The notes under the pieces: model-generated
Seen by the model: only the letters and a program-made list of their open reading frames with translations
The model's database searches: none
What the model was told of the DNA's origin: nothing
Virus record (IMG/VR): IMGVR_UViG_2721755647_000003
Location: 1-41,420 of that record
Source of the DNA: a virus
Lineage: Duplodnaviria > Heunggongvirae > Uroviricota > Caudoviricetes
DNA length: 41,420 nucleotides
Strand: one strand, 5' to 3'
In this document: in pieces, positions 4,208 through 40,285 of the stretch
Layout of the letters: each line of letters opens with the position of its first letter
How positions within the stretch are numbered: the stretch's first letter is position 1
Position numbers and translations under genes: made by a program

Positions 4208-5025
4208 ATGTACATATCCTGTTTGCGTGCCCACTCAGGGCGTTTAATGATTTCCACACCGCCCCATTCATCATTGATGCGGCATTCGTGATAGGTATTC
4301 AGATCCCGGCGGAACAGAGCGTGCCCGGCATCGACATCCTGCGCATCCAGCTCGAACACGCGTACCGGATACCGACCACAATCAATGCTTTCGCTCACGG
4401 CAAGAAAGAAAAAACCATGCGGCTGACCAGTAACCCTCATTGCGCCTTCGCGGTACATTGCGTCCTGCACGTGGTAGCGGAATTCCTCGATGTGGCGTGC
4501 AAAACGGTCCATATCTGCAACCTTTTTCACGTCGACGATCACGTTGTGCTCGTTCAGCCATTTGTCTGGACGAATTCGGCACAACTCCCCCGTCTCTTCA
4601 TCGTTCCAGTACATTGATGCTTCGCAGTAACCAGGTGCTTCCAGCATCCAGCGTGCCGCCGGGTGAGCCATTGCGCTATCACGCATCAGCTCCAGTTTCC
4701 GCCACTGCTCGGCATCAAGTACCGTAATCCCCATATCCGCCACATCACGAAGAAATTCCTCTTCGTCAGCTTTACCTTGTTTCGTCCGACGATCGAATTT
4801 CGGTGAAACAATGAAGCGTTTGTCGAACTCTCCAGGCTCCAGAAGCAGACAGTGCAATGCGGTTCCCATATCCAGTGCAGACTTTTTCTCTTCGTCTTCT
4901 GGTGCTGCCTGAACCCATTTAAGAAGCGCCGGATTCTTGGCAACCATGTCCAGTTGCGACTTACTCACGCCGTCACCGGCGTGGTAGTCTTCGTTGCTGA
5001 TGTCTAAATAAATTCCCGGTTTCAT
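4204..5025 (-). CDS. PD-(D/E)XK-type recombination exonuclease (RecE C-terminal domain / YqaJ-like), 273 aa
   Basis: N-terminus MKPGIYLDISNEDYHAGDGVSKSQL typical of phage exonuclease VIII-like nucleases; immediately upstream of and coupled to the RecT-like gene. Confidence 0.7.
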   Translation of the reverse strand: MKPGIYLDISNEDYHAGDGVSKSQLDMVAKNPALLKWVQAAPEDEEKKSALDMGTALHCLLLEPGEFDKRFIVSPKFDRRTKQGKADEEEFLRDVADMGITVLDAEQWRKLELMRDSAMAHPAARWMLEAPGYCEASMYWNDEETGELCRIRPDKWLNEHNVIVDVKKVADMDRFARHIEEFRYHVQDAMYREGAMRVTGQPHGFFFLAVSESIDCGRYPVRVFELDAQDVDAGHALFRRDLNTYHECRINDEWGGVEIIKRPEWARKQDMYI

Positions 5026-5482: not shown

Positions 5483-5572
5483 TTACCTCGGTCTGTTACC
5501 GTTGAGGTAATAATTATGCGTATATGGTTTGATGTCAATAGATATGAGTTAAAAAAATTACCCGTTAGGTAA
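5483..5572. promoter_or_regulatory. Left operator cluster: half-site TTACC at 5483, perfect TTACC-N5-GGTAA at 5496-5510 and 5558-5572
   Basis: Exact inverted repeats read from sequence; lie between the repressor gene terminator and the leftward early genes, the PL/OL position. Confidence 0.55.
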
Positions 5573-5583
5573 TCGAATAGGCA

Positions 5584-5607
5584 ATAAAAAAGCCGCCATA
5601 AGGCGGC
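5584..5607 (-). terminator. Intrinsic terminator downstream of the repressor gene
   Basis: Minus strand reads GCCGCC-TTAT-GGCGGC followed by TTTTTTATT. Confidence 0.6.
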
Positions 5608-5629
5608 TTACTTACTGAAAAATATGGTT

Positions 5630-6214
5630 TTATTGTTTGTTTTTTTCGTTCTGGTTGATGACAAATTCAATGTAACTTTCGATCTTTGCTTTCTCGGTTT
5701 CGGGTAACAATGCGTAGCGCGAGCGATCATAGTTGATGGTCGCAGGGTCGTGCGGGTGAATCAGTAATTCATAGCCGTGACGCCCGAATGCGGATGCAAC
5801 ATTCTCCAGGGTGGAAATGGAAACGCTGACCTCATTGTTTAACAGGCGGCTGATTGTCACCTGGGCTACGCCGGATGCGCGGTGAAGTTTTCCCTGTGTT
5901 GAAAGGTCGCGGCTTTCGCTCATCCAGCGTTCCAGGTTGTGAGCCGCCAGCTGGCCAATGTCGCTTGGGCCGACAGGCTGAAAACCTTCCTGAGAAAGCG
6001 AGCGATCGATATCAAGCCAGTTACGGGGTTTATTGGCGGCAGCTTCAATTTTTCGTGCAACCTGGTCGCCGATAACCTTCTTGCCAAGAGCCCAGCGGTT
6101 TACCAGATTTGCCTGAGTTCCAAGTTTTTCAGCCATCCGCGTCTGAACACCATTGAATTCACGGTCGATCAAGTCGTTGAGATTTTGCCTGCGGACGTCC
6201 TGGATACTTTTCAT
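5630..6214 (-). CDS. Prophage repressor, CI-like, with two HTH (XRE-type) segments and no recognisable S24 peptidase domain (194 aa)
   Basis: HTH-like segments MAEKLGTQANLVNRWALGKK and VAQVTISRLLNNEVSVSISTLENVASAFG; divergent from a Cro-like gene; no GDSM-type Ser/Lys autocleavage motif seen. Confidence 0.75.
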   Translation of the reverse strand: MKSIQDVRRQNLNDLIDREFNGVQTRMAEKLGTQANLVNRWALGKKVIGDQVARKIEAAANKPRNWLDIDRSLSQEGFQPVGPSDIGQLAAHNLERWMSESRDLSTQGKLHRASGVAQVTISRLLNNEVSVSISTLENVASAFGRHGYELLIHPHDPATINYDRSRYALLPETEKAKIESYIEFVINQNEKNKQ

Positions 6215-6269
6215 TTTCTGGAAAATCGCCTCATATATGAATCAGTAGATGATTCAATTTAAAGCAATA

Positions 6270-6332
6270 TTACCCAACAGGTAAATGCACCCCACAGGTA
6301 ACTATCCTTGATTTTTGTTACCTTATGGGTGA
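6270..6332. promoter_or_regulatory. Right operator cluster between repressor and cro-like genes: perfect site 6270-6284, half-site about 6295, imperfect site 6318-6332 (GGTGA)
   Basis: TTACC-CAACA-GGTAA and TTACC-TTATG-GGTGA in the 154-bp divergent intergenic region. Confidence 0.6.
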
Positions 6333-6368
6333 ATATTTATTATCTGAAATAAATATCAGGCAATAGCT

Positions 6369-6599
6369 ATGAGCGATAACGGACATTTCGATTTCAAAAA
6401 GCACTGGCTTGCACTTACTCCGGATGAGCGTGAAGCCTTCGCACAGGAAGCCGGAACGACGAGTCACTATATCCAGACTCACTTAACAGGTAAGCGCAAA
6501 ATGCCAGGTAAGGTATTGATGAATGGGCTTTTTAAAGCCTGTAAAACAAGACAATGGCTGCGCTCAAAAGCAGAATTGGCATACTTCTTCTACTCATGA
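6369..6599 (+). CDS. Cro-like / YdaS-type small HTH regulator (76 aa)
   Basis: Small basic ORF divergent from the repressor; sequence resembles YdaS/Cro-family proteins of Rac-like prophages. Confidence 0.65.
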   Translation: MSDNGHFDFKKHWLALTPDEREAFAQEAGTTSHYIQTHLTGKRKMPGKVLMNGLFKACKTRQWLRSKAELAYFFYS

Positions 6600-6621
6600 T
6601 ATCCAGCCACAACCCTCTGTA

Positions 6622-6645
6622 GACCGCCATCCGGCGGTCTTTTCA
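6622..6645 (+). terminator. Intrinsic terminator after the cro-like gene (tR1 position)
   Basis: GACCGCC-ATCC-GGCGGTC followed by TTTTCAT; a near-operator GTACC-TCAAA-GGTAA follows at 6655-6669. Confidence 0.5.
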
Positions 6646-6749
6646 TATCTATTCGTACCTCAAAGGTAATAAAAAACCAAATCTGGTTGATCTTTTTTTT
6701 GTGTCAGCACAAAATGACCGTAATCCCAATACTAATAACAGGGCTTACC

Positions 6750-8594: not shown

Positions 8595-8671
8595 TTACCT
8601 GTTAGGTAATAAAATATTCTAAAATCTATTGATTTCGTGTCTTATGTGGTTTTTAATTACCTCAGAGGTAA
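8595..8671. promoter_or_regulatory. Two perfect TTACC-N5-GGTAA palindromes (8595-8609, 8657-8671) upstream of the nin-like operon
   Basis: TTACC-TGTTA-GGTAA and TTACC-TCAGA-GGTAA; the second ends 3 nt before the ATG at 8675. Confidence 0.55.
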
Positions 8672-12155: not shown

Positions 12156-12788
12156 ATGATGCCTGCTGAACCTAAAACCTATAAACGCAAATCAACGCAA
12201 TTTAAGCCACTAACCGCAATGCAGGAGGCTTATTGCCAGTCATACATCAAAACGCCTGAAAACCAGACTCAGGCAGCGATTAACGCAGGATTCTCCCCAA
12301 ATACAGCGGCAGTTAAAGCCAGTGTCATGATGCGCGATGAACGCATTCAAAAACGGATTGCCGAGTTGATGGAGGAGCGCAACAAACGAATGCGCGTCAG
12401 TGCCGATTACGTTCTCATGCGCCTGGTGGAGATCGACCAGATGGACGTGCTGGATATACTGAACGATGACGGCGGGATGAAGCCGATCGCTGAATGGCCG
12501 AAGGTCTGGCGTACCTCTCTCAGTGCTATGGATATCGCTACCATCAAGACAACCCAGGCTTCCCTGCAAAAAGAGAATGGCGAGGCGGATCTCTCTGTTG
12601 AGGATGTCGAGCATATCCTGAAGAAGGTGAAATGGCCCGACAAGGTGAAAAACCTCGAGCTCATCGGTAAGCACGTCGACGTTAACGCGTTCAAAGAACG
12701 TCTGGATGTTAATGTGAATGTGACAATTGCTGATCGCATAGCAGCAGCCAGGAAGCGACTCAAAGAACGTCAGGATGGTAATCAGTGA
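12156..12788 (+). CDS. Terminase small subunit, P27-type (210 aa)
   Basis: Resembles P27-family small terminase subunits; ATG at 12156 after AGGGTGG; upstream part of the track ORF overlaps the terminator hairpin; coupled to the large subunit. Confidence 0.75.
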   Translation: MMPAEPKTYKRKSTQFKPLTAMQEAYCQSYIKTPENQTQAAINAGFSPNTAAVKASVMMRDERIQKRIAELMEERNKRMRVSADYVLMRLVEIDQMDVLDILNDDGGMKPIAEWPKVWRTSLSAMDIATIKTTQASLQKENGEADLSVEDVEHILKKVKWPDKVKNLELIGKHVDVNAFKERLDVNVNVTIADRIAAARKRLKERQDGNQ

Positions 12789-14260
12789 CAGATACAGCGT
12801 TATCTCCTGAAGAGCAGTTGATCGAGGATATTGCAGGGTTCACTCACGATCCGCTTGGCTATGCCCTCTATGCGTTCCCGTGGGGGGGAGAGGGGACTGA
12901 ACTGGCACATGCCACCGGCCCACGTCAGTGGCAGGCTGATGCGTTCCGAGAGATACGTGATCACCTGCAGAATCCAGAGACGCGCTATCAGCCGCTTATG
13001 CTGGCACGCGCTTCTGGTCACGGTATTGGTAAATCCGCATTCATCTCAATGCTGATCAACTGGGGCATGTCCACTTGCGAGGATTGTAAGGTCGTGGTGA
13101 CTGCCAACACCGACAACCAGCTACGAACGAAGACCTGGCCGGAAATTATCAAGTGGTCGAACCTTGCTATCACGAAAGACTGGTTTACCTGTACCGCTAC
13201 CGCGATGTACAGCAATGATCCTGGGCACGACAAGCGGTGGCGAGCTGACGCAATCCCCTGGTCTGAGCACAACACTGAGGCATTCGCCGGACTACACAAC
13301 GAGCGCAAACGCATCATCGTGGTATTCGATGAAGCGTCGAACATTGCGGATCTGGTGTGGGAAGTTGCTGAGGGTGCGCTTACGGACGAAGACACTGAGA
13401 TTATCTGGGTGGCGTTCGGAAACCCTACACGTAACACCGGGCGTTTCCGCGAATGTTTCCGCAAATATAAACACCGCTGGAAAACTGCGCAGATTGACAG
13501 CCGGACGGTGGAAGGCACTAACAAACAGCAGTTGCAGAAATGGGTTGATGACTACGGGGAAGACAGCGACTTCGTTAAAATCCGTGTGCGCGGCATATTC
13601 CCTGATGCATCTGAATTGCAGTTTATCCCTACCGGTCTTACTGATGAGGCAATGAAACGGGTGGTAACCGCTGCGCAGGTGGCGCATGCTCCGGTGATAA
13701 TCGGTGTTGACCCGGCATATTCAGGCGTTGATGACGCGGTGATATACCTGCGGCAGGGGCTACACAGTAAGGTGCTGTGGACTGGCAACAAGACTACCGA
13801 CGATCTGATTATGGCGAAGCGTATCGCTGACTTTGAAGACCTGTATCAGGCTGACGCAGTGTTCATCGACTTTGGTTACGGTACCGGTCTGAAGTCAATC
13901 GGTGACGGTTGGGGGCGCACATGGCAACTTGTTCCGTTCGGTGGCGCGTCTACTGACCCGCAGATGCTCAACAAGCGTGGGGAGATGTTCAACTCATGCA
14001 AGACATGGCTGAGGCTGGGCGGGATGCTTGATGACCAGGAAACAGCGGACGACCTGTCGGCGGCAGAGTACAAAGTTCGAGTGGACGGTAAAATCGTTAT
14101 CGAACCGAAGGAAGATATCAAGGAGCGGCTTGGGCGTTCGCCGGGTAAAGGCGATGCGCTATTGCTGACGTTTGCTTTCCCTGTGTCGAAGCGTCTGCGA
14201 ATTCCAGGTCAGCAGAACCAGCAAGGCAAGGCCATTACAGATTACGATCCCTATGCTTAA
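12785..14260 (+). CDS. Terminase large subunit (491 aa, GTG start)
   Basis: Walker A-like ARASGHGIGKS; size and position; GTG overlaps the small-subunit stop (GTGA). Confidence 0.85.
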   Translation: MTDTALSPEEQLIEDIAGFTHDPLGYALYAFPWGGEGTELAHATGPRQWQADAFREIRDHLQNPETRYQPLMLARASGHGIGKSAFISMLINWGMSTCEDCKVVVTANTDNQLRTKTWPEIIKWSNLAITKDWFTCTATAMYSNDPGHDKRWRADAIPWSEHNTEAFAGLHNERKRIIVVFDEASNIADLVWEVAEGALTDEDTEIIWVAFGNPTRNTGRFRECFRKYKHRWKTAQIDSRTVEGTNKQQLQKWVDDYGEDSDFVKIRVRGIFPDASELQFIPTGLTDEAMKRVVTAAQVAHAPVIIGVDPAYSGVDDAVIYLRQGLHSKVLWTGNKTTDDLIMAKRIADFEDLYQADAVFIDFGYGTGLKSIGDGWGRTWQLVPFGGASTDPQMLNKRGEMFNSCKTWLRLGGMLDDQETADDLSAAEYKVRVDGKIVIEPKEDIKERLGRSPGKGDALLLTFAFPVSKRLRIPGQQNQQGKAITDYDPYA

Positions 14261-14310
14261 TCCGCTGGTGGGGATAATGTCGTTGATATCCTCTGGTGAG
14301 GATAAAACAA

Positions 14311-14330
14311 AGCCAGCTCATAGGCTGGCT
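14311..14330. terminator. Hairpin between convergent terminase and Gp49-like genes (acts as terminator at least on the minus strand)
   Basis: AGCCAGC-TCATAG-GCTGGCT; the minus strand continues into TTTGTTTTAT. Confidence 0.5.
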
Positions 14331-14334
14331 GTTT

Positions 14335-14346
14335 GTGACATGTCAC
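14335..14346. repeat. Perfect 12-bp palindrome GTGACATGTCAC (copy 2)
   Basis: Exact sequence; 4 nt after the stop of the minus-strand gene and directly before the hairpin. Confidence 0.9.
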
Positions 14347-14350
14347 GGTG

Positions 14351-14722
14351 TTATTGCTCGCTTAACTTCTGCTTCAGCAAGTAACCTTCAAGCATCCAGA
14401 TTTTGTTTACAGCATTCTGCCTGGCAATCTTCCGACCAATTTCTGCATCAAAGTTTTCCGGGCTTGCACATGCGCTCTCTCCGGTGACGGTGAAGCCGTT
14501 GCGCAGCACCAGGACGCAGAACGTCAGCAGAGAAAGTGATTCGTGCGGCTGGTAGTTTACCTCTCCGCCAGTATGTTTCGCTTTTATGGCTTTGCCAAAG
14601 GCACCATCTTCTGCTGTGAAATATGCCCCCTGAGCAATAATGCCTTCGATATGGTCTGGCGTAACGCGCGGTGCCGTTTTGCCTTTCTCAACGATTTCTT
14701 TTTCGATTTGCTTGTCGTTCAT
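14351..14722 (-). CDS. Gp49-like phage protein (N4 Gp49 / Sf6 gp66 family; 123 aa)
   Basis: Family call by resemblance only (not searched); AAGGTGAG RBS directly follows the T-run of an upstream terminator. Confidence 0.6.
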   Translation of the reverse strand: MNDKQIEKEIVEKGKTAPRVTPDHIEGIIAQGAYFTAEDGAFGKAIKAKHTGGEVNYQPHESLSLLTFCVLVLRNGFTVTGESACASPENFDAEIGRKIARQNAVNKIWMLEGYLLKQKLSEQ

Positions 14723-14732
14723 AATCTCACCT

Positions 14733-14758
14733 TAAAAAAAATGCCCGGCGAACCGGGC
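14733..14758 (-). terminator. Intrinsic terminator between the tRNA and the Gp49-like gene
   Basis: Minus strand reads GCCCGG-TTCG-CCGGGC followed by ATTTTTTTT. Confidence 0.55.
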
Positions 14759-14921
14759 GAACTGGAAGCAATGAGTTATGCCTTCCGTGGCTGTACGGGT
14801 TTACAGCATGAAGTCATCGCAATGGCGTCCTGCTGTAAAAAGGGCGGTGATAGTCCTTCAAGGGAAACCATCACCGCCAAGCCCCTGGAACTTCTGGCAT
14901 CACGGTCCTTAGGCGTGATTC

Positions 14922-14998
14922 TGGCGTGGCATGCAGGATTCGAACCTGCGACCAACCGCTTAGAAGGCGGTTGCTCTGTCCGACTGAGCTAATGCCAC
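14922..14998 (-). tRNA. tRNA-Arg, anticodon UCU (77 nt, CCA encoded)
   Basis: Cloverleaf folded by hand: acceptor GTGGCAT/ATGCCAC, D-stem GCTC/GAGC, anticodon stem ACCGC/GCGGT with loop CTTCTAA, T-stem GCAGG/CCTGC, T-loop TTCGAAT, discriminator G, CCA. Confidence 0.85.
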
Positions 14999-15320
14999 AA
15001 CGCTGAGAGCACTTAGCCTGTTAAGGCGCCACACTTTGTCGCGGCTCCATAAATGCTCTCATCGTTGTACCCTCGTCTCTTCCGAGGCGTCACACCGAAT
15101 CGCCGGGATGGTGAATCCCCGTGCGCGGAATAAAACCGCTCGACTTGCACATTCCGGCTACCTGGTTCGTTTGCCCGAGCAAGGGAGGGTGCCCCTTAAA
15201 CGTATCCAGACCGCTATCGGCGCATGTGCCATACGCCGTACTGCTCAAAATAAAAGCTCACTCCACCTGTTTAATTTAACGACAAGCCAGTCAGGTTAGT
15301 AACCAGAATGAGCTCTTTAG

Positions 15321-15335
15321 TTACCTGAAAGGTAA
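15321..15335. promoter_or_regulatory. Perfect palindrome TTACC-TGAAA-GGTAA upstream of the morphogenesis operon
   Basis: Exact sequence; AT-rich region about 90 bp before the first structural-block ATG. Confidence 0.55.
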
Positions 15336-15425
15336 TAATTAACGCGTTAAATGTCAACCTTCTACGATAAATAAATCATATGTGGTTAAATTGGTAATAA
15401 TTTAATTGCGTACGGAGTCATTGAT

Positions 15426-15632
15426 ATGTGCATGGGTAGCTCACCATCAGTGCCTGCAACACCAGAAGTTCAGGCAGCACCACAGGAGCAGGATGCCGCC
15501 GTTGTTGATGCCCGCGACGAAGAAACACGTCGCCGTCGCGCTGCTGCTGGTCGTAGTTCTACGCTGCTTACCGGTTCTCAGGGCGACACATCAACTGCTA
15601 ATACCAGCGGTAAAACGCTGCTTGGTCAGTAA
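15426..15632 (+). CDS. Small hypothetical protein (68 aa) preceding the portal gene
   Basis: GGAG RBS; Ala/Arg-rich low-complexity sequence. Confidence 0.5.
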   Translation: MCMGSSPSVPATPEVQAAPQEQDAAVVDARDEETRRRRAAAGRSSTLLTGSQGDTSTANTSGKTLLGQ

Positions 15633-15646
15633 CCGGAGTCATTGAA

Positions 15647-32689: not shown

Positions 32690-33553
32690 TTATTTCCTGC
32701 CACTTCTGTAGTATATGTTGCGACCATTTTTGGTCACATTAACAACATGCCCCTTTGTTTCTACTTTGTTATTTGTTGCCTTATATACTTCAAAGTCAAA
32801 CCATGATATATGACTTATTTCGTCTATAGATACCATAATTTCTAGACCTTGAACTTTCTTTTTGCTTATCCCTTTTATCGCAGCACTGCGCTTAATTTGG
32901 ATTTCACCTGGGTAAGCGTTTGTAAATGTAACAGATAAATTTTCTTTGTTTCTGTACCCTGACATTAAAGGAACAAAAGATATGTGTTGGTGTGGCCCTT
33001 GATTTTCCGTTAGCTCACCAGAACCATTTATTATTCCAACGTATACTTTATTTGATGATAAAGTAATTAACATTGGTTTCTTAGGATCTGATTCGATTGC
33101 ATCAAGCAATAGCAAATCTAAAGAACCCTGGGAGTACGTTTTTCGCAATACTCTAGCTTTCATTGCCTCTGATATTTTGTCATAAATATCACGTTTATAA
33201 AAACAACCTAAAAGAAGATCTTTTAGCCAAACAAAAGATACATAACACAAAGAGAAGCAAATTGATGTGGCTGAGAGAAGAAGCAGCCACATGTAAATTC
33301 TATCTGTTTCTGGTTTTGATGTTACATTAAAAGTTTCCACCATATCGTGAACTAGGTGAAAATCAGGCCATTTATATTTTATAGCGGCTGCAATTATTAC
33401 TGATGCAACAAGGCAATATGTACCTAGTGCCGCTACCTTCATATAAAGAAGCTGGCCTTCGTGTCGGTATAAACGGAAATAATGATACTGGTTAGCGGTT
33501 ATCATAATATAACCGCTAACCAGGATTGGGATAATTAGAAGAGCTAGCAACAC
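32690..33553 (-). CDS. AT-rich integral membrane protein of unknown function (287 aa; about 3 TM helices plus C-terminal soluble domain)
   Basis: Three hydrophobic segments in the first 110 residues; GTG start overlapping the upstream stop (TAGTG). Confidence 0.6.
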   Translation of the reverse strand: MLLALLIIPILVSGYIMITANQYHYFRLYRHEGQLLYMKVAALGTYCLVASVIIAAAIKYKWPDFHLVHDMVETFNVTSKPETDRIYMWLLLLSATSICFSLCYVSFVWLKDLLLGCFYKRDIYDKISEAMKARVLRKTYSQGSLDLLLLDAIESDPKKPMLITLSSNKVYVGIINGSGELTENQGPHQHISFVPLMSGYRNKENLSVTFTNAYPGEIQIKRSAAIKGISKKKVQGLEIMVSIDEISHISWFDFEVYKATNNKVETKGHVVNVTKNGRNIYYRSGRK

Positions 33554-33868: not shown

Positions 33869-34579
33869 TCAGAAGAACCCTGCCTTGTCGTTGATGTACT
33901 CCGCGTGGGTCTGGATATCACGCAGGCATTTACTCACACCGACGATGTAGCAGAACATGGTGGTCAGCTCCGCCGCCGCGCCCGATACATCGTGCCCGTC
34001 TTCCTGTAACTGGTTTAGCAGATTCATCAGCAGTGAGTTCTCCGTCAGGCCGAGAACACCAGACGGCGAATGAATCAGGCTACGGTAGCCGGGCTTCAGT
34101 GGGGCACTGTAGGTTTTGTTCTCTATCTTCATCGCCTGCATTACTGCTGACGCCGTGGCGTTGGCTACCTGGTCGGCAACCATCTTTATGCGTTCTTCCT
34201 GCGGGAGCGAGTTTTTAATGTAGCTTCCGGTGCGGCGGATCTGAGGAAGAACCTCACCTGTAACCCATTTACGAAAGCGGTAGGGGATAGTGCCTGGTGT
34301 CACCGCATCGCGGCAGCGGAGGATCAGTGTGTAGAGGCCTGACTCGGAGATGATGTTGATCTCTTTTACTCGGCTGTCAAAAATTGCACGATGTTCATGC
34401 CCTATGTTGAACATAGACCTTTCATCATCATCCAGTTTTTCAAGTGCTTGGGTGACGTTTTGGATACGCAGCGCACTACAAACGTCTTGGGCTACAAACC
34501 ATGGTTGGCCATCGATAATGATGGAACGGATAGGGTTAACAGATTCAAATTTGAAGATGGCAGTTTGAGCATTAGCCAT
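33869..34579 (-). CDS. Bro-N domain antirepressor-like protein (236 aa)
   Basis: N-terminal FKFESVNPIRSIIIDGQPWFVAQDVCSALRIQN...ESGLYTLILRC Bro-N pattern; ATG at 34579 with GGAGAT RBS. Confidence 0.75.
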   Translation of the reverse strand: MANAQTAIFKFESVNPIRSIIIDGQPWFVAQDVCSALRIQNVTQALEKLDDDERSMFNIGHEHRAIFDSRVKEINIISESGLYTLILRCRDAVTPGTIPYRFRKWVTGEVLPQIRRTGSYIKNSLPQEERIKMVADQVANATASAVMQAMKIENKTYSAPLKPGYRSLIHSPSGVLGLTENSLLMNLLNQLQEDGHDVSGAAAELTTMFCYIVGVSKCLRDIQTHAEYINDKAGFF

Positions 34580-34733
34580 GGTGGTTATCTCCACTTAGTG
34601 ATTTTAATCACCACCGCAACGCCAATTACTGGTGGTGAACTGGACAAGGTTGGCGTACCGGCCTAAGTGGTACCGGCGTCCTTTCGGACCCCTGCCCAGC
34701 CCACCATAATTCGGATATAGCTGTGCTTAACGC

Positions 34734-34758
34734 ATAAAAAAACCACGTCTGGCGTGGT
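34734..34758 (-). terminator. Intrinsic terminator between the two Bro-related genes
   Basis: Minus strand reads ACCACG-CCAGA-CGTGGT followed by TTTTTTTAT. Confidence 0.5.
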
Positions 34759-34848
34759 ATGCGCCACTTAGTAACTCGGGACGCCAATCCCGGCACTGGA
34801 TTTTGCCAGTACCCGATTACTATGGCACAAGAGGAGTGCGATGTAAAT

Positions 34849-35347: not shown

Positions 35348-38104
35348 ATGACGGTCTCAACCGAAGTTGACCACAACGAATACACCGGTAACGGCGCTAC
35401 GACATCATTTCCGTATACCTTCCGTATTTTCAAAAAATCCGACCTGGTTGTTCAGGTGTCTGACCTGAACGGGAACGTAACAGAATTGGTTCTGGATACC
35501 GGTTATACGGTAACTGGGGCGGGCACTTATAGTGGCGGTTCTGTTGTTCTTCCGTCGCCGCTTGCTGCTGGATGGCGAATTACGATAGATCGTGTGCTTG
35601 ATGTAGTGCAGGAGACAGACCTTCGCAATCAGGGAAAATTTTTCCCCGAAGTGCATGAAGATGCTTTTGACTACCTGACGATGCTGATCCAGCAATGTTT
35701 TGGGTGGTTCAGACGTGCATTGATGAAACCATCTTTGCTTGCAAAATATTACGATGCAAAGCAAAACAGAATTTCTAACCTTGCAGATCCATCACTTGAG
35801 CAGGATGCTGTAAATAATCGCTCAATGCGTAATTATGTTGATGCTGCAATCGCCGGAGTTGTTGGTGGTTTTGGTTGGTTTATTCAGTATGGTTCTGGAG
35901 CAGTATACCGAACGTTCCAGGATAAGATGCGGGATAACGTTAACGCTCTTGATTTTGTTCCGTTTGAGCAAAGATATGCTGCATTAAATTTTGAAGTTGA
36001 TGCGTCTGAATGGTTAATTAATGCGATAAATTCTGGTGCAAGTGTCGTTAGAATACCTGCAGGTAAATGGATGATTTCTAAGAACATAGATGTGCCTCCT
36101 GGAGTGTCATTAATTGGTGATGGCATTGATTATTGGGATACATATAGACCAGCGCCTGAAAGATTATTAAAAAGTTGGAGTAAAGGAACCCATCTTGTAT
36201 TTACTGGTGATGGAGAAAAAAACAAATATTTTTTTAACATCTCTAATGAAAGACCAGTTAAAATTGTTGAAGGGATATCTTGTAAGTTCACTGAGTTTAC
36301 AAATGAAGATTCTGTAGGTGTTACTCCTGCTACACCAAAAGCCATGAGCGTAGCTGTTAGTATCAACAGGGCATCACAGTTACGCAACCTGAGAATAATG
36401 GTAAGTAAAAATGGTATTGAAGGATACAATAACCCTGATTCTTATTCATTGGGTGATGACTGGGATATAGGGTTGCATGTATACGATAGCTGTGATTCAG
36501 TTATTGATAACGTACAGATTGTCGGCTATTGGAGGGTAAAAGGACTACTACTGACAGAAAATGACGGGAGCCTTTCAATGAAGGGAAATCCTGAAAAAAC
36601 GCACTTTAATAACGTTTATGTCCAGTCAGGGATCGCGATAAGGAATAGCCCTCAGATTGATCTTGTAAGTAATACTGAAAGCTCAGTGACATTTAAACAT
36701 AAAAAGTCGATGAGAATAACTTCAGTTAAACAGTTTAAAATTGCTGGCAGTGAATCAGTATATACGTATTCAGATGCATCATTTGATGGAGCTAACATCA
36801 CACTATCTGGTATTTCTCCTGAAATACAAGGTACAATAAGTGTAATCAGGTTTCCGTCAATTGGTAATAATTTTAGCGGGACTGTTTTTGAGAATACAGT
36901 AGCCACTACTCTTGATCATACATCAGGTAAGCCATCAGAATACTTTGGCCTTCCTGCATCCTTTGCATTAGAGGTTGATGGTTTCCCTGTTCGTAATTTA
37001 AGGTTTGATAAATTCAAAGCTCAAACAACATTTGATAAAGGAAATTGCATTTTTGGTGATTGCCGTGATGTTAAAATAACATCATCTGAGTTTGAAAATG
37101 GAATTATGATTGCGTATAACCTGACCGAGACTCAGGGTTATACAGGAAATCTTAGATTTTTTGCTTCTGATCTTCAGAGCAGCGTTAACACAAGTGAGTT
37201 TAAACCAAGAGACGCATTTGTAGACAATAGACAAATAAAAACGGAGTTTACTGATGGTTCGTTCATTATAAAGAACTGGAGGCCTACAGATACAAAAATA
37301 CAATGGTCGTCTGGAGTAGATGCTATTGTTCTTAGAGAGTCACCTGACGAACAATCAGACGGAAATATTTACGGGTATCACATTGATGGTAAAAGATGGA
37401 TTAATGTTAGTGGATATAACAAAGATATAAATATTTCATCAAGAAACTTAAGCGTAAAAAACCATGGTGATGACTCTGCAGTTATTAATATATTCGGCGA
37501 CTCTGGAAATATTGCCATTAAAGGTAATTTTTCACCAATTATTGATAACAGCAAATCTCTTGGTGCACCATCATTTAGATGGGCACAGGTTTATTCTGCG
37601 AACGGTTCGATAAACACATCAGATGGTAGAGAAAAAAGTGAACCGATTAGTACAAGTGAGCTCAGCTTGTATATGTCTCGTGGTTATGAAGGTGATGCAA
37701 TTCTGGATGCATGGGGAGATATCAGGATTGTAGCTTTTCGCTGGCTTGATGCCGTCAGGGAAAAGGGAGATGGTGCCCGCTGGCATTTTGGTGTTATAGC
37801 ACAACAAGTGAGAGACACTTTCCTCGCGCATGGGATTGATGGAACCAGATTTGGCCTTCTCTGTTACGATGAATGGGATGATAAATACGCGCCAGTGATG
37901 GCGGTAAGGATGATCACTAAAGTTGTGGATGGCGTCGAAATTGAGATGGAAGAAGAATACGAAACAGAAGAGCGAACTCTGGTTTGCAAGGCTGGAAATA
38001 GGTGGGGTATCCGTACTGACCAGTGTTTATGGCTTGAGTCAGCTTATTTGCGTAGAAGAATCGAAAAAATAGAATCACGTCTTGCAATGCTTAAAAGTAG
38101 CTAA
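35348..38104 (+). CDS. Tail fibre / tailspike protein (918 aa): conserved N-terminal virion-attachment region, AT-rich central receptor-binding region, C-terminal chaperone-like domain
   Basis: N-terminus MTVSTEVDHNEYTGNGATTSFPYTF typical of podoviral tail fibre anchors; central part Asn/Ser/Ile-rich and AT-rich; C-terminal region resembles intramolecular-chaperone domains (inference). Confidence 0.75.
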   Translation: MTVSTEVDHNEYTGNGATTSFPYTFRIFKKSDLVVQVSDLNGNVTELVLDTGYTVTGAGTYSGGSVVLPSPLAAGWRITIDRVLDVVQETDLRNQGKFFPEVHEDAFDYLTMLIQQCFGWFRRALMKPSLLAKYYDAKQNRISNLADPSLEQDAVNNRSMRNYVDAAIAGVVGGFGWFIQYGSGAVYRTFQDKMRDNVNALDFVPFEQRYAALNFEVDASEWLINAINSGASVVRIPAGKWMISKNIDVPPGVSLIGDGIDYWDTYRPAPERLLKSWSKGTHLVFTGDGEKNKYFFNISNERPVKIVEGISCKFTEFTNEDSVGVTPATPKAMSVAVSINRASQLRNLRIMVSKNGIEGYNNPDSYSLGDDWDIGLHVYDSCDSVIDNVQIVGYWRVKGLLLTENDGSLSMKGNPEKTHFNNVYVQSGIAIRNSPQIDLVSNTESSVTFKHKKSMRITSVKQFKIAGSESVYTYSDASFDGANITLSGISPEIQGTISVIRFPSIGNNFSGTVFENTVATTLDHTSGKPSEYFGLPASFALEVDGFPVRNLRFDKFKAQTTFDKGNCIFGDCRDVKITSSEFENGIMIAYNLTETQGYTGNLRFFASDLQSSVNTSEFKPRDAFVDNRQIKTEFTDGSFIIKNWRPTDTKIQWSSGVDAIVLRESPDEQSDGNIYGYHIDGKRWINVSGYNKDINISSRNLSVKNHGDDSAVINIFGDSGNIAIKGNFSPIIDNSKSLGAPSFRWAQVYSANGSINTSDGREKSEPISTSELSLYMSRGYEGDAILDAWGDIRIVAFRWLDAVREKGDGARWHFGVIAQQVRDTFLAHGIDGTRFGLLCYDEWDDKYAPVMAVRMITKVVDGVEIEMEEEYETEERTLVCKAGNRWGIRTDQCLWLESAYLRRRIEKIESRLAMLKSS

Positions 38105-40131: not shown

Positions 40132-40285
40132 CATGGCATTTTTCATGGTACTGATTTCCGGTGACGGTATATAAAACGGTACGAGAAAAATTCATCTTTG
40201 GAAAAATGTTATCACTCAATTGGTTATGGTATCCGTAAATAATTGAGTGGGAATGATTTGAACCCTGCACTATGAATGAACAAAA

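Follow-up and report, generated by a model that had tools for sequence, protein, structure and literature searches.

A candidate early accessory operon with a conserved structured RNA, a tRNA-Arg(UCU) and an exchangeable Acb4-family gene in a phiV10-type prophage

Results and Discussion

A leftward unit between the terminase and portal genes

Positions 14,311 to 14,998 of the IMG/VR virus record IMGVR_UViG_2721755647_000003, whose full 41,420 nucleotides (nt) are referred to here as the window, carry a tRNA-Arg(UCU), an intrinsic transcription terminator and a small protein-coding gene (the cargo gene) on the strand opposite to that of the flanking structural genes. This interval is the downstream two-thirds of a leftward transcription unit of ~1.05 kilobases (kb) that lies between the large terminase gene (terL) and the gp3 and portal genes, and the minus-strand unit runs past it to about position 15357 (Table 1). 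An initial annotation made from the letters alone described an antisense insertion of ~1.1 kb between terL and portal. Its strand and location are correct, but the distance from the terL stop to the portal start is 1386 base pairs (bp; 14261-15646) and includes a small plus-strand gene of the phrog_831 family. The limits that it drew for the minus-strand unit were too short, since they left out a putative repressor-controlled promoter, which places the beginning of the unit ~360 nt further upstream, and a structured RNA of ~250 nt upstream of the tRNA. The phiV10 record marks the hairpin between the convergent terL and cargo genes, at the other end of the unit, as a terminator.

Escherichia phage phiV10 and the O157 typing phages 9 and 10 share 96% identity with the region, and further relatives include the Salmonella phages SPN1S and SPC32H, epsilon15, and phages of Klebsiella and Enterobacter. 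The source is a prophage of the phiV10/epsilon15 type (Uetakevirus), and all of the relatives named here are Uetakevirus members or similar podoviruses. An integrase gene occupies positions 1-1257, and the attachment (att) core ATTGAGTGGGAATGATT reported for the relative ZX5 (PMC9782041) occurs once in the window, at 40242-40258, with non-phage genes beyond it. Together, these features identify the window as a prophage. The same minus-strand module is found between terL and portal across relatives from E. coli, Salmonella, Klebsiella and Enterobacter. Near-identical backbones were compared in a set of 80 phages from IMG/VR, each with a portal that matches that of the window at 99% identity or more.

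Table 1. Features of the leftward unit and its flanking genes (window coordinates)
Feature	Position	Strand	Basis or detail
Large terminase gene (terL)	12785-14260	+	Flank
Hairpin between convergent terL and cargo genes	14311-14330	Both	Terminator-like on minus strand
Cargo gene, Acb4 family (PF13876), 123 amino acids (aa)	14351-14722	-	Pfam, structure match
Conserved ribosome-binding site (RBS) AAGGUGAG, directly behind the U-run	14726-14733	-	Junction kept in relatives
Intrinsic terminator, 6-bp G+C stem, UUCG loop, U8	14734-14758	-	Stem covariation
Structured trailer	14759-14921	-	Hairpins 14919-14899 and 14878-14843, invariant block
tRNA-Arg(UCU), CCA encoded	14922-14998	-	ARAGORN, Rfam
Structured RNA, ~250 nt (core and P6)	14999-15245	-	
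P6, variable insert closed by a stem of 15067-15052 and 15013-14998	14999-15067	-	Compensatory changes
RNA core: P1, P2, P4 with pseudoknot, P5, long invariant single strands	15068-15245	-	Covariation
5ˊ leader with covarying stem AAAGAGCUCA / UGAGCUUUU	15246-15320	-	Relatives' alignment
Putative repressor operator TTACCTGAAAGGTAA, palindrome spanning -10 and +1	15321-15335		Motif count and epsilon15 annotation
-10 hexamer TACCTT, 17-nt spacer	15329-15334	-	Inside operator
-35 hexamer TTGACA	15352-15357	-	Read from sequence
Small conserved gene, epsilon15 gp3 type, phrog_831	15426-15632	+	Flank
Portal gene, PF12236	15647-17326	+	Flank

Promoter, operator and leader

Upstream of the structured RNA is a candidate promoter whose -10 hexamer, with A and T at positions 2 and 6, respectively, lies within a palindrome that reads TTACCTTTCAGGTAA on the minus strand (15335-15321). 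Palindromes of this operator type, TTACCTNNNAGGTAA, occur 15 times in the window versus 0.9 expected, and the homologous site in epsilon15 is annotated as 'repressor; lysogeny'. From these features we infer that TTGACA-17-TACCTT serves as a repressor-controlled leftward promoter. The -35 hexamer, the spacing and the operator are kept in 41 distinct relatives, where the -35 reads TTGAC(A/C) at a fixed distance from the operator (TTGGCA in two), and the stretch from the operator to the RNA is variable in length. The leader that follows contains a stem, GAGCUCA/UGAGCUU, which is replaced by AGCGCAC/GUGCGCU or GGUGCAC/GUGCAC in relatives (judged by eye, with no formal count). The other TTACCTNNNAGGTAA copies (5496-6669, 8595-8671, 12124, 33789, 34849 and 35229, besides that at 15321) are concentrated in the immunity region and also precede several operons, that of the tailspike among them, and look like one repressor regulon of many promoters.

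A conserved structured RNA precedes the tRNA

The fold of the RNA was examined by using a MAFFT alignment of 39 sequences below ~94% similarity to each other (sequence-matcher ratio). In the core, helices P1, P2, P4 and P5 and a pseudoknot, which joins the loop of P4 to a downstream strand, are paired in 92.4% of the alignment cells, compared with 29-50% for controls in which the helices were slid. Fifteen core pairs change on both sides (101 cells), a value reached by none of 500 shuffles. Pair 149:169 of the pseudoknot is C-G in 35 sequences, A-U in four and unpaired in none. A covariance model of the core gives exactly one match in the window, with 139 bits. Two additional interactions are suggested by complementarity, one between GCACAU and AUGUGC and the other between the P2 loop CUUG and CAAG, and these strands are invariant in the sample. 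Long segments that are unpaired in the model are also invariant (UGGCACAUG, AGCGGUC, GGUAGCCGGAAUGUGCAAG and GGCG), which points to possible tertiary contacts or a bound partner.

The P6 stem is 15-17 bp long in all 27 variants and its sequence changes are compensated; for example, GAGAGCA/UGCUCUC becomes GAUGGCU/AGUCAUC, GAGCGCA/UGCGCUC or AAAGGCG/CGCCGUU. The domain as a whole ranges from 50 to 211 nt, with inserts that differ in both sequence and length. The window insert (15014-15051, minus strand) can form two small hairpins and also contains a nine-codon open reading frame (ORF), MEPRQSVAP. The same insert, with compensatory changes, is present in the lambdoid Stx2c (Shiga toxin 2c) and mEp460 copies, indicating that insert types have been exchanged between phage groups. 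A boxA or nut reading of the string UGCUCUUU in P6 was rejected because this strand is paired and is replaced with compensation in some variants. Likewise, several short ORFs exist in 14999-15245, but the helix substitutions are compensatory and a coding reading was set aside. Some records annotate plus-strand 'hypothetical proteins' over this region.

A blastn search revealed that the RNA is ~80% identical to unannotated stretches in unrelated phages, including cdtI, mEp460, 2H10, Stx2c and Stx2a phages, mEp390, P1, P7, D6, SJ46 and RCS47, as well as Klebsiella phage SopranoGao and one phage listed for Stenotrophomonas. The chromosomes or plasmids of 1839 among 5426 complete E. coli genomes contain copies, and no annotated feature underlies them among the matches listed. 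An exact-pattern scan added over 150 copies, taken from IMG/VR and from Enterobacteriaceae and Erwinia species genomes in GTDB; pattern matches outside these groups lack the second conserved block and were discarded as chance matches. Prophage e14 of E. coli K-12 was also excluded as a carrier, because the gap beside its repressor gene (~175 nt) is too short; other K-12 prophages were not part of this comparison.

No Rfam 15 family matches positions 14999-15320 on either strand at E≤10, the tRNA being the sole Rfam match in this part of the window, and none matches the related modules of nine other loci at gathering thresholds. A literature search found no published description of the RNA, the P1 genome paper being outside its reach. 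With no Rfam family and no annotation in the records examined, the RNA appears to be new; the tRNA beside it is already known. About one in three complete E. coli genomes, as well as the classic phages P1 and P7, carry this large, strongly covarying RNA without annotation.

The RNA occurs once per phage record among the blastn matches listed, with no copy on the rightward operon, and its strand agrees with local transcription in every context examined. In lambdoid phages and in BUCT708 it lies downstream of an S24/helix-turn-helix repressor gene and the operator-bearing promoter of that gene. It follows a good promoter in SopranoGao, and in P1 it is located inside the ban operon on the same strand. 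In two lambdoid carriers, the first ORF after the RNA appears unlike the N antiterminator by eye, with no search made. The RNA is the most widespread component of the unit and is ancestral to it, being the common denominator to which the tRNA is one of several fused partners.

The tRNA-Arg(UCU) is joined directly to the RNA

The initial call of a well-formed tRNA-Arg(UCU) is borne out by both programs applied. ARAGORN reports one tRNA in the window, with specificity for arginine and anticodon tct, and the Rfam model RF00005 gives 73.3 bits against a threshold of 29 (E=2.6e-14). CCA is encoded at 14924-14922, the anticodon loop is CUUCUAA, and the D-loop AGUCGGACA contains G18, G19 and A20. Arginyl-tRNA synthetase uses A20 and C35 as identity elements, and the tRNA carries both of these, with C35/U36 in its UCU anticodon. 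It is not a new element, since it is annotated in the related O157 typing phages 9 and 10, SPC32H and SPN9TCW and is listed in the ZX5 paper (PMC9782041).

In about 500 E. coli records, the top match to this tRNA is a copy at least 95% identical. Genomes that lack the prophage copy, a K-12 MG1655 derivative among them, offer at best 84.5% identity, over positions 7-77 with the acceptor stem excluded. The possibility that the tRNA is a host gene at a prophage end, raised initially as one that would overturn the proposal, was rejected on this basis and on the positions of the integrase and the att core (40242-40258). No more than 84.5% identical to any host tRNA and 25 kb from the att junction, the tRNA is a phage gene.

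G1 of the tRNA takes part in the final base pair of P6. Consequently, cleavage by RNase P would create the 3ˊ end of the structured RNA. In P1, the RNA instead begins directly after the CCA of a tRNA-Ile, within a ban operon (4800-4901 in our locus L008) that is unusually rich in noncoding RNAs (ncRNAs), with a dicF-like region, three tRNAs and the RNA. Among 155 copies of the RNA, 30 are followed directly by tRNA-Arg(tct), 19 directly follow the P1 tRNA and 106 have no adjoining true tRNA. For the 80 near-identical backbones, the RNA and tRNA-Arg occupy this place in 77, and one carries a cloverleaf instead of the tRNA.

Cloverleaves of this kind are found in many tRNA-less copies, as a module of ~100 nt after P6 that is closed by GUUGUGGU/ACCACAAC and folds with an acceptor-like stem of 8-9 bp. 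They have no Rfam match and are not called by ARAGORN. Outside the window, modules of ~100-135 nt occur in L009, L004, L119, L177, L174, L179 and other loci, each with a GGCUGA-loop arm and a 9-nt-loop arm adjoining the 3ˊ strand, and some variants hold true T-arm-like hairpins (GGUUCGAUUCC). Two such units are present in some loci; in L013, L153, L177 and L179, two or more P6-plus-cloverleaf units stand in tandem after one core in a cassette-like arrangement.

A terminator is followed by an exchangeable gene

The stretch from the 3ˊ end of the tRNA to the U-run of the terminator is conserved in all relatives and contains covarying hairpins and invariant blocks (CUUUUUACAGCAG..GCCAUU.CGAUGAC..CUGUAAA). 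The second of its hairpins, 14878-14843, is terminator-like. The terminator proper forms the stem GCCCGG-UUCG-CCGGGC (14758-14743) with a U-run at 14741-14734. It was already recognized upstream of the Gp49-like gene by the initial annotation, and its stem covaries among relatives (GG/CC versus AC/GU; AU:5/GC:4 and CG:5/GC:2).

Only 11 nt separate the U-run from the ATG of the cargo gene (14722), and a scan of the spacer 14723-14921 detected no sigma-70-like site. The earlier remark that a separate promoter would not fit between the U-run and the RBS is therefore sound, and, given this lack of room, co-transcription of the gene with the tRNA by read-through would be the simplest model, as was originally suggested.

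The gene itself is not a fixed partner of the tRNA. In relatives, the same terminator and AAGGTGA..ATG junction precedes unrelated genes, which include several subtypes of Acb4-like genes, two Tad2-like genes (PF11195, E about 1e-25), a ~140-aa MKTxDMLA family, a predicted membrane protein in SPC32H, an HNH endonuclease and others. The 80 near-identical backbones include 30 with Acb4-like genes, ~10 with the MKT family and one with a Tad2-like gene, and 19 lack the RBS junction. In relatives that lack the junction, an operator and a TATAAT hexamer follow the terminator, which fits the absence of a dedicated promoter for genes placed at the conserved RBS. Examples are loci L010, L028, L033, L112, L118 and L125, where the terminator is followed by the operator, TATAAT and a small gene (MFESFKELF...) that thus carries its own repressor-controlled promoter.

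This docking slot behind a terminator is a new variant of accessory-gene organization. Placing a promoterless accessory gene behind the strong terminator that ends an RNA/tRNA unit is an uncommon way for a phage to express it, and the slot offers a place to mine the neighbours of Acb4- and Tad2-type genes for candidate counter-defence genes.

Epsilon15 (L007, about 1400-1650) retains the trailer but lacks the tRNA and the 3ˊ part of the RNA, both lost in a deletion. A GUUYCCCUUGAUGCU loop motif, present both in the P2 loop of the RNA and in a trailer hairpin, apparently marks the two ends of this deletion, and GenBank labels the leftover as an opposite-strand 'RNaseIII' site.

The cargo protein belongs to the Acb4 family

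The protein encoded by the cargo gene matches PF13876 (Phage_gp49_66) over the full profile, positions 1-82 of 82, with 116.9 bits against a cut-off of 27 (E=5.8e-34), in agreement with its first description as Gp49-like. A phmmer comparison with Protein Data Bank (PDB) entry 9E4W gives E=0.006 and 22% identity to SPO1 Acb4. An AlphaFold2 model (36 sequences) has a predicted local distance difference test score (pLDDT) of 83.4, and a Foldseek search of the PDB with this model returned chains of 9E4W as its top 13 matches, all with probability 1.0 and target-normalized template modelling (TM) scores of 0.54-0.71; the next match has E=0.19. The protein has no match in PADLOC or NCBIfam. Taken together, the profile and the predicted fold place it firmly, as a new member, in the already known Acb4 family.

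The founding member of PF13876 is SPO1 Acb4, a tetrameric sponge for 3'3'-cyclic GMP-AMP (3'3'-cGAMP) that blocks CBASS, an antiphage signalling system based on cyclic oligonucleotides (PMC11722364). Eight Acb4 homologues were assayed; every one of them bound 3'3'-cGAMP, and the cyclic dinucleotide 3'3'-cAA was an additional ligand for those whose phages infect Gram-negative hosts (PMC11722364). Acb4 activity appears early in SPO1 infection, which fits the early promoter proposed for the window unit. The cargo protein shares with SPO1 Acb4 the Pfam family, the predicted fold and an ENF-x-x-EIGR motif, but it is longer (123 aa versus 96 aa), has an N-terminal extension and differs at several pocket residues. 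A gene that was left without a known role in the initial annotation, and that is 'hypothetical' in phiV10-type phages used in O157 typing and detection, thereby gains a hypothesis, namely that it encodes an anti-CBASS sponge.

Codon demand for the tRNA

It had also been suggested that the tRNA could supply decoding of the rare codons AGA and AGG. Across 25 confident genes in the window, AGA and AGG are used at 5.2 and 4.7 per 1000 codons, respectively. The tailspike gene (35348-38104, plus strand) stands out, with 21 AGA and 10 AGG among its 50 arginine codons. Its GC content is 0.40, compared with ~0.51 in neighbouring genes, it carries a Peptidase_S74 chaperone domain, and horizontal transfer is its probable origin. 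Excluding the tailspike lowers AGA use to 3.4 per 1000, against ~2 per 1000 in E. coli K-12. Because this remaining value is near that of the host, the codon-supply argument rests mainly on the tailspike, which is one clear potential client of the tRNA, with little else beside it. The suggestion is thus plausible, but the demand comes mainly from a single gene. Elsewhere in the window, a low-GC (0.35) accessory gene beside the antirepressor module (32690-33553, minus strand) has four AGA among 11 arginine codons.

Interpretation of the unit

We favour the view, with a probability of roughly 0.6, that the unit is an early accessory operon that would produce a processed RNA, a tRNA possibly aiding translation of the AGA-rich tailspike mRNA and, by read-through, a counter-defence protein. 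In a lysogen, the repressor would keep the unit silent, and infection or induction would lead to early firing. RNase P acting at the tRNA 5ˊ end, together with normal 3ˊ processing of the tRNA, would then separate three products, namely the structured RNA, the tRNA and the trailer. A share of the polymerases would continue past the terminator, such that the cargo gene is expressed early, and by homology its product would sequester the cyclic-dinucleotide alarm signals of CBASS. The tRNA would supplement scarce AGA decoding, with the tailspike as its main consumer.

Several observations weigh against this view. The -10 hexamer is weak, matching the consensus at three of six positions, and for this reason a consensus promoter scanner did not call the leftward promoter at 15321-15357. 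The terminator is efficient in appearance, and plain read-through may yield little cargo protein. AGA use outside the tailspike is near the host level, and any benefit of the tRNA is hypothetical; in addition, the anticodon loop is one that we take to be the same as in host argU. We also compared the SPO1 Acb4 pocket residues K36, F48, E49, V56, Y57, F62, N63, I66, T70 and K81 with the cargo protein. In the phmmer alignment, three of the eight aligned residues are identical (F48/F77, F62/F91 and I66/I95), five are substituted (N63 to D, V56 to C, E49 to T, Y57 to A and T70 to I), and K36 and K81 fall outside the alignment. Finally, the cargo gene is intact in epsilon15 despite the loss of the tRNA and of most of the RNA, which indicates that the parts are separable.

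The role of the RNA itself is considered in a more tentative proposal, to which we give somewhat less than even odds. The ~250-nt RNA, comprising the core, P6 and the adjoining tRNA or cloverleaf, may represent a new class of functional early RNA. It would be either an antiterminator made of RNA alone, which permits read-through into promoterless counter-defence cargo, or a counter-defence or host-takeover RNA with a host protein or signal as its binding partner, and in both cases tRNA-processing enzymes would cut its ends. Such a class would be common to P1-like, lambdoid/Stx and Uetakevirus-type phages and to some virulent phages of Enterobacteriaceae. The key point is whether passage of the terminator reflects mere leakiness or is promoted by the RNA, and a counter-defence RNA is the other serious possibility. 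Because the RNA heads early operons and is fused to tRNAs or tRNA-like folds, its function can be tested directly.

The explanation that survives best beside the early accessory operon, albeit a rather unlikely one, is that the RNA is a cis-acting processive antiterminator resembling HK022 put. It would modify its own polymerase, which would then read through two terminators to the cargo gene, and the terminator would stop only transcripts from elsewhere. Such a function would account for the location of the RNA just downstream of repressor-controlled early promoters in Uetakevirus-type and lambdoid phages and in BUCT708, which is the position of nutL and putL, as well as for the apparent dissimilarity to N of the first ORF in the lambdoid carriers examined (again by eye, with no search). 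It is also consistent with the conserved placement of a strong terminator directly before a promoterless cargo gene equipped with an RBS. However, the RNA has no sequence likeness to HK022 put and is far longer (~250 nt versus ~70 nt), each phage carries a single copy rather than one on each early operon, and the boxA-like string in P6 is base-paired and is not kept in all variants. Moreover, the P1 copy is located after a tRNA in the middle of an operon, a search of mEp460 detected no terminator separating the RNA from the genes that follow it, and epsilon15 keeps the cargo gene without the RNA.

We consider it unlikely that the RNA, the tRNA or both are themselves counter-defence factors, acting as decoys or replacements for immune nucleases that target RNA or tRNA or by binding an immune protein or signal, in an early anti-defence locus shared with protein sponges. 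The sharing of an early promoter with Acb4- and Tad2-family genes invites this idea, as do the P1 operon, which combines the RNA with three tRNAs, and the tRNA-shaped cloverleaf with its 8-9 bp stem that fills the tRNA position in tRNA-less copies. The many invariant unpaired bases would suit a bound partner. Nevertheless, no defence nuclease specific for tRNA-Arg(UCU) was identified in this analysis, the anticodon loop is presumably unaltered relative to host argU, and PADLOC finds nothing in the neighbourhood.

It is quite unlikely that the cargo gene has an unrecognized promoter of its own within the trailer (14759-14921), which would make the terminator a 5ˊ untranslated region attenuator and the gene independent of the tRNA transcript. 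The strong conservation and invariant blocks of the trailer could reflect such a promoter, and epsilon15 keeps the trailer, terminator and cargo gene after losing the RNA and tRNA. Yet no sigma-70-like site is present in the trailer, its hairpins covary as RNA, and the epsilon15 deletion leaves the upstream promoter in place.

A recent antisense insertion of a moron, providing only rare-codon supply and an unknown passenger gene, is improbable. The tRNA, terminator and gene are as first described and AGA is enriched in the tailspike, but the comparative data contradict a simple local insertion: the module is common to phages of E. coli, Salmonella, Klebsiella and Enterobacter and has its own promoter and RNA, its gene belongs to a characterized family, and the passenger varies while the RNA and tRNA stay. 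Lastly, action of the 250-nt element as DNA, in recombination or replication, is highly improbable: inverted repeats (GTTGTGG/CCACAAC) flank the modules and could support cassette exchange, but the helices tolerate G-U while keeping the pairing of one strand, the orientation always matches local transcription, and the ends coincide with tRNA processing sites.

Relationship to known systems

Like other phage tRNA-Arg(UCU) genes, such as those of Stx-converting and T4-like phages, the window tRNA has the cloverleaf, the UCU anticodon and a potential role in supplying a scarce decoder. It differs in being fused base-to-base to the 3ˊ end of a structured RNA, in residing in a putative repressor-controlled unit antisense to structural genes and in having its demand concentrated in one gene.

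The put RNAs of HK022 are ~70 nt long, form two stem-loops and occur in two copies, putL and putR (PMC9378689). Both they and the window RNA are promoter-proximal structured RNAs heading an early operon in phages seemingly without N. The window RNA differs in its length of ~250 nt, its pseudoknot, its single copy per genome and its lack of sequence similarity, and no HK022 record is among the blastn matches listed for it.

Other ncRNAs derive from tRNA transcripts, including the species 1 and 2 RNAs of T4, 3ˊETS-leuZ of E. coli and the TMERs of murine gammaherpesvirus 68 (MHV68). These are also non-tRNA RNAs whose ends are set by processing of an adjoining tRNA or tRNA-like fold. The window RNA is unrelated to them in sequence or structure, is larger and is conserved across unrelated phage groups with or without a true tRNA. 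GOLLD and ROOL RNAs are large, ornate RNAs of phages and prophages that are often located near tRNAs. The window RNA is likewise an ornate, conserved and often tRNA-adjacent phage RNA, but it differs in size, sequence and hosts, and neither Rfam family matches it.

Morons are promoter-gene-terminator units located between phage genes, and hotspots of anti-defence genes are likewise known. The window unit resembles both, in that a variable accessory gene sits amid structural genes with a terminator after it, and neighbouring relatives differ only in the passenger. It is not a moron in the usual sense, since its passenger lacks a promoter and is docked at a fixed RBS behind the terminator of an ncRNA/tRNA unit.

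Elsewhere in the window, a C4 antisense RNA (66 bits) and an isrK-like RNA (63.5 bits) are encoded at 34628-34812 on the minus strand, just upstream of a Bro-N antirepressor-type gene (33869-34594, minus strand). This arrangement constitutes a P1/P7 immI-like module in a Uetakevirus prophage, and the same C4/isrK-like pair is present in the lambdoid loci L009 and L004.

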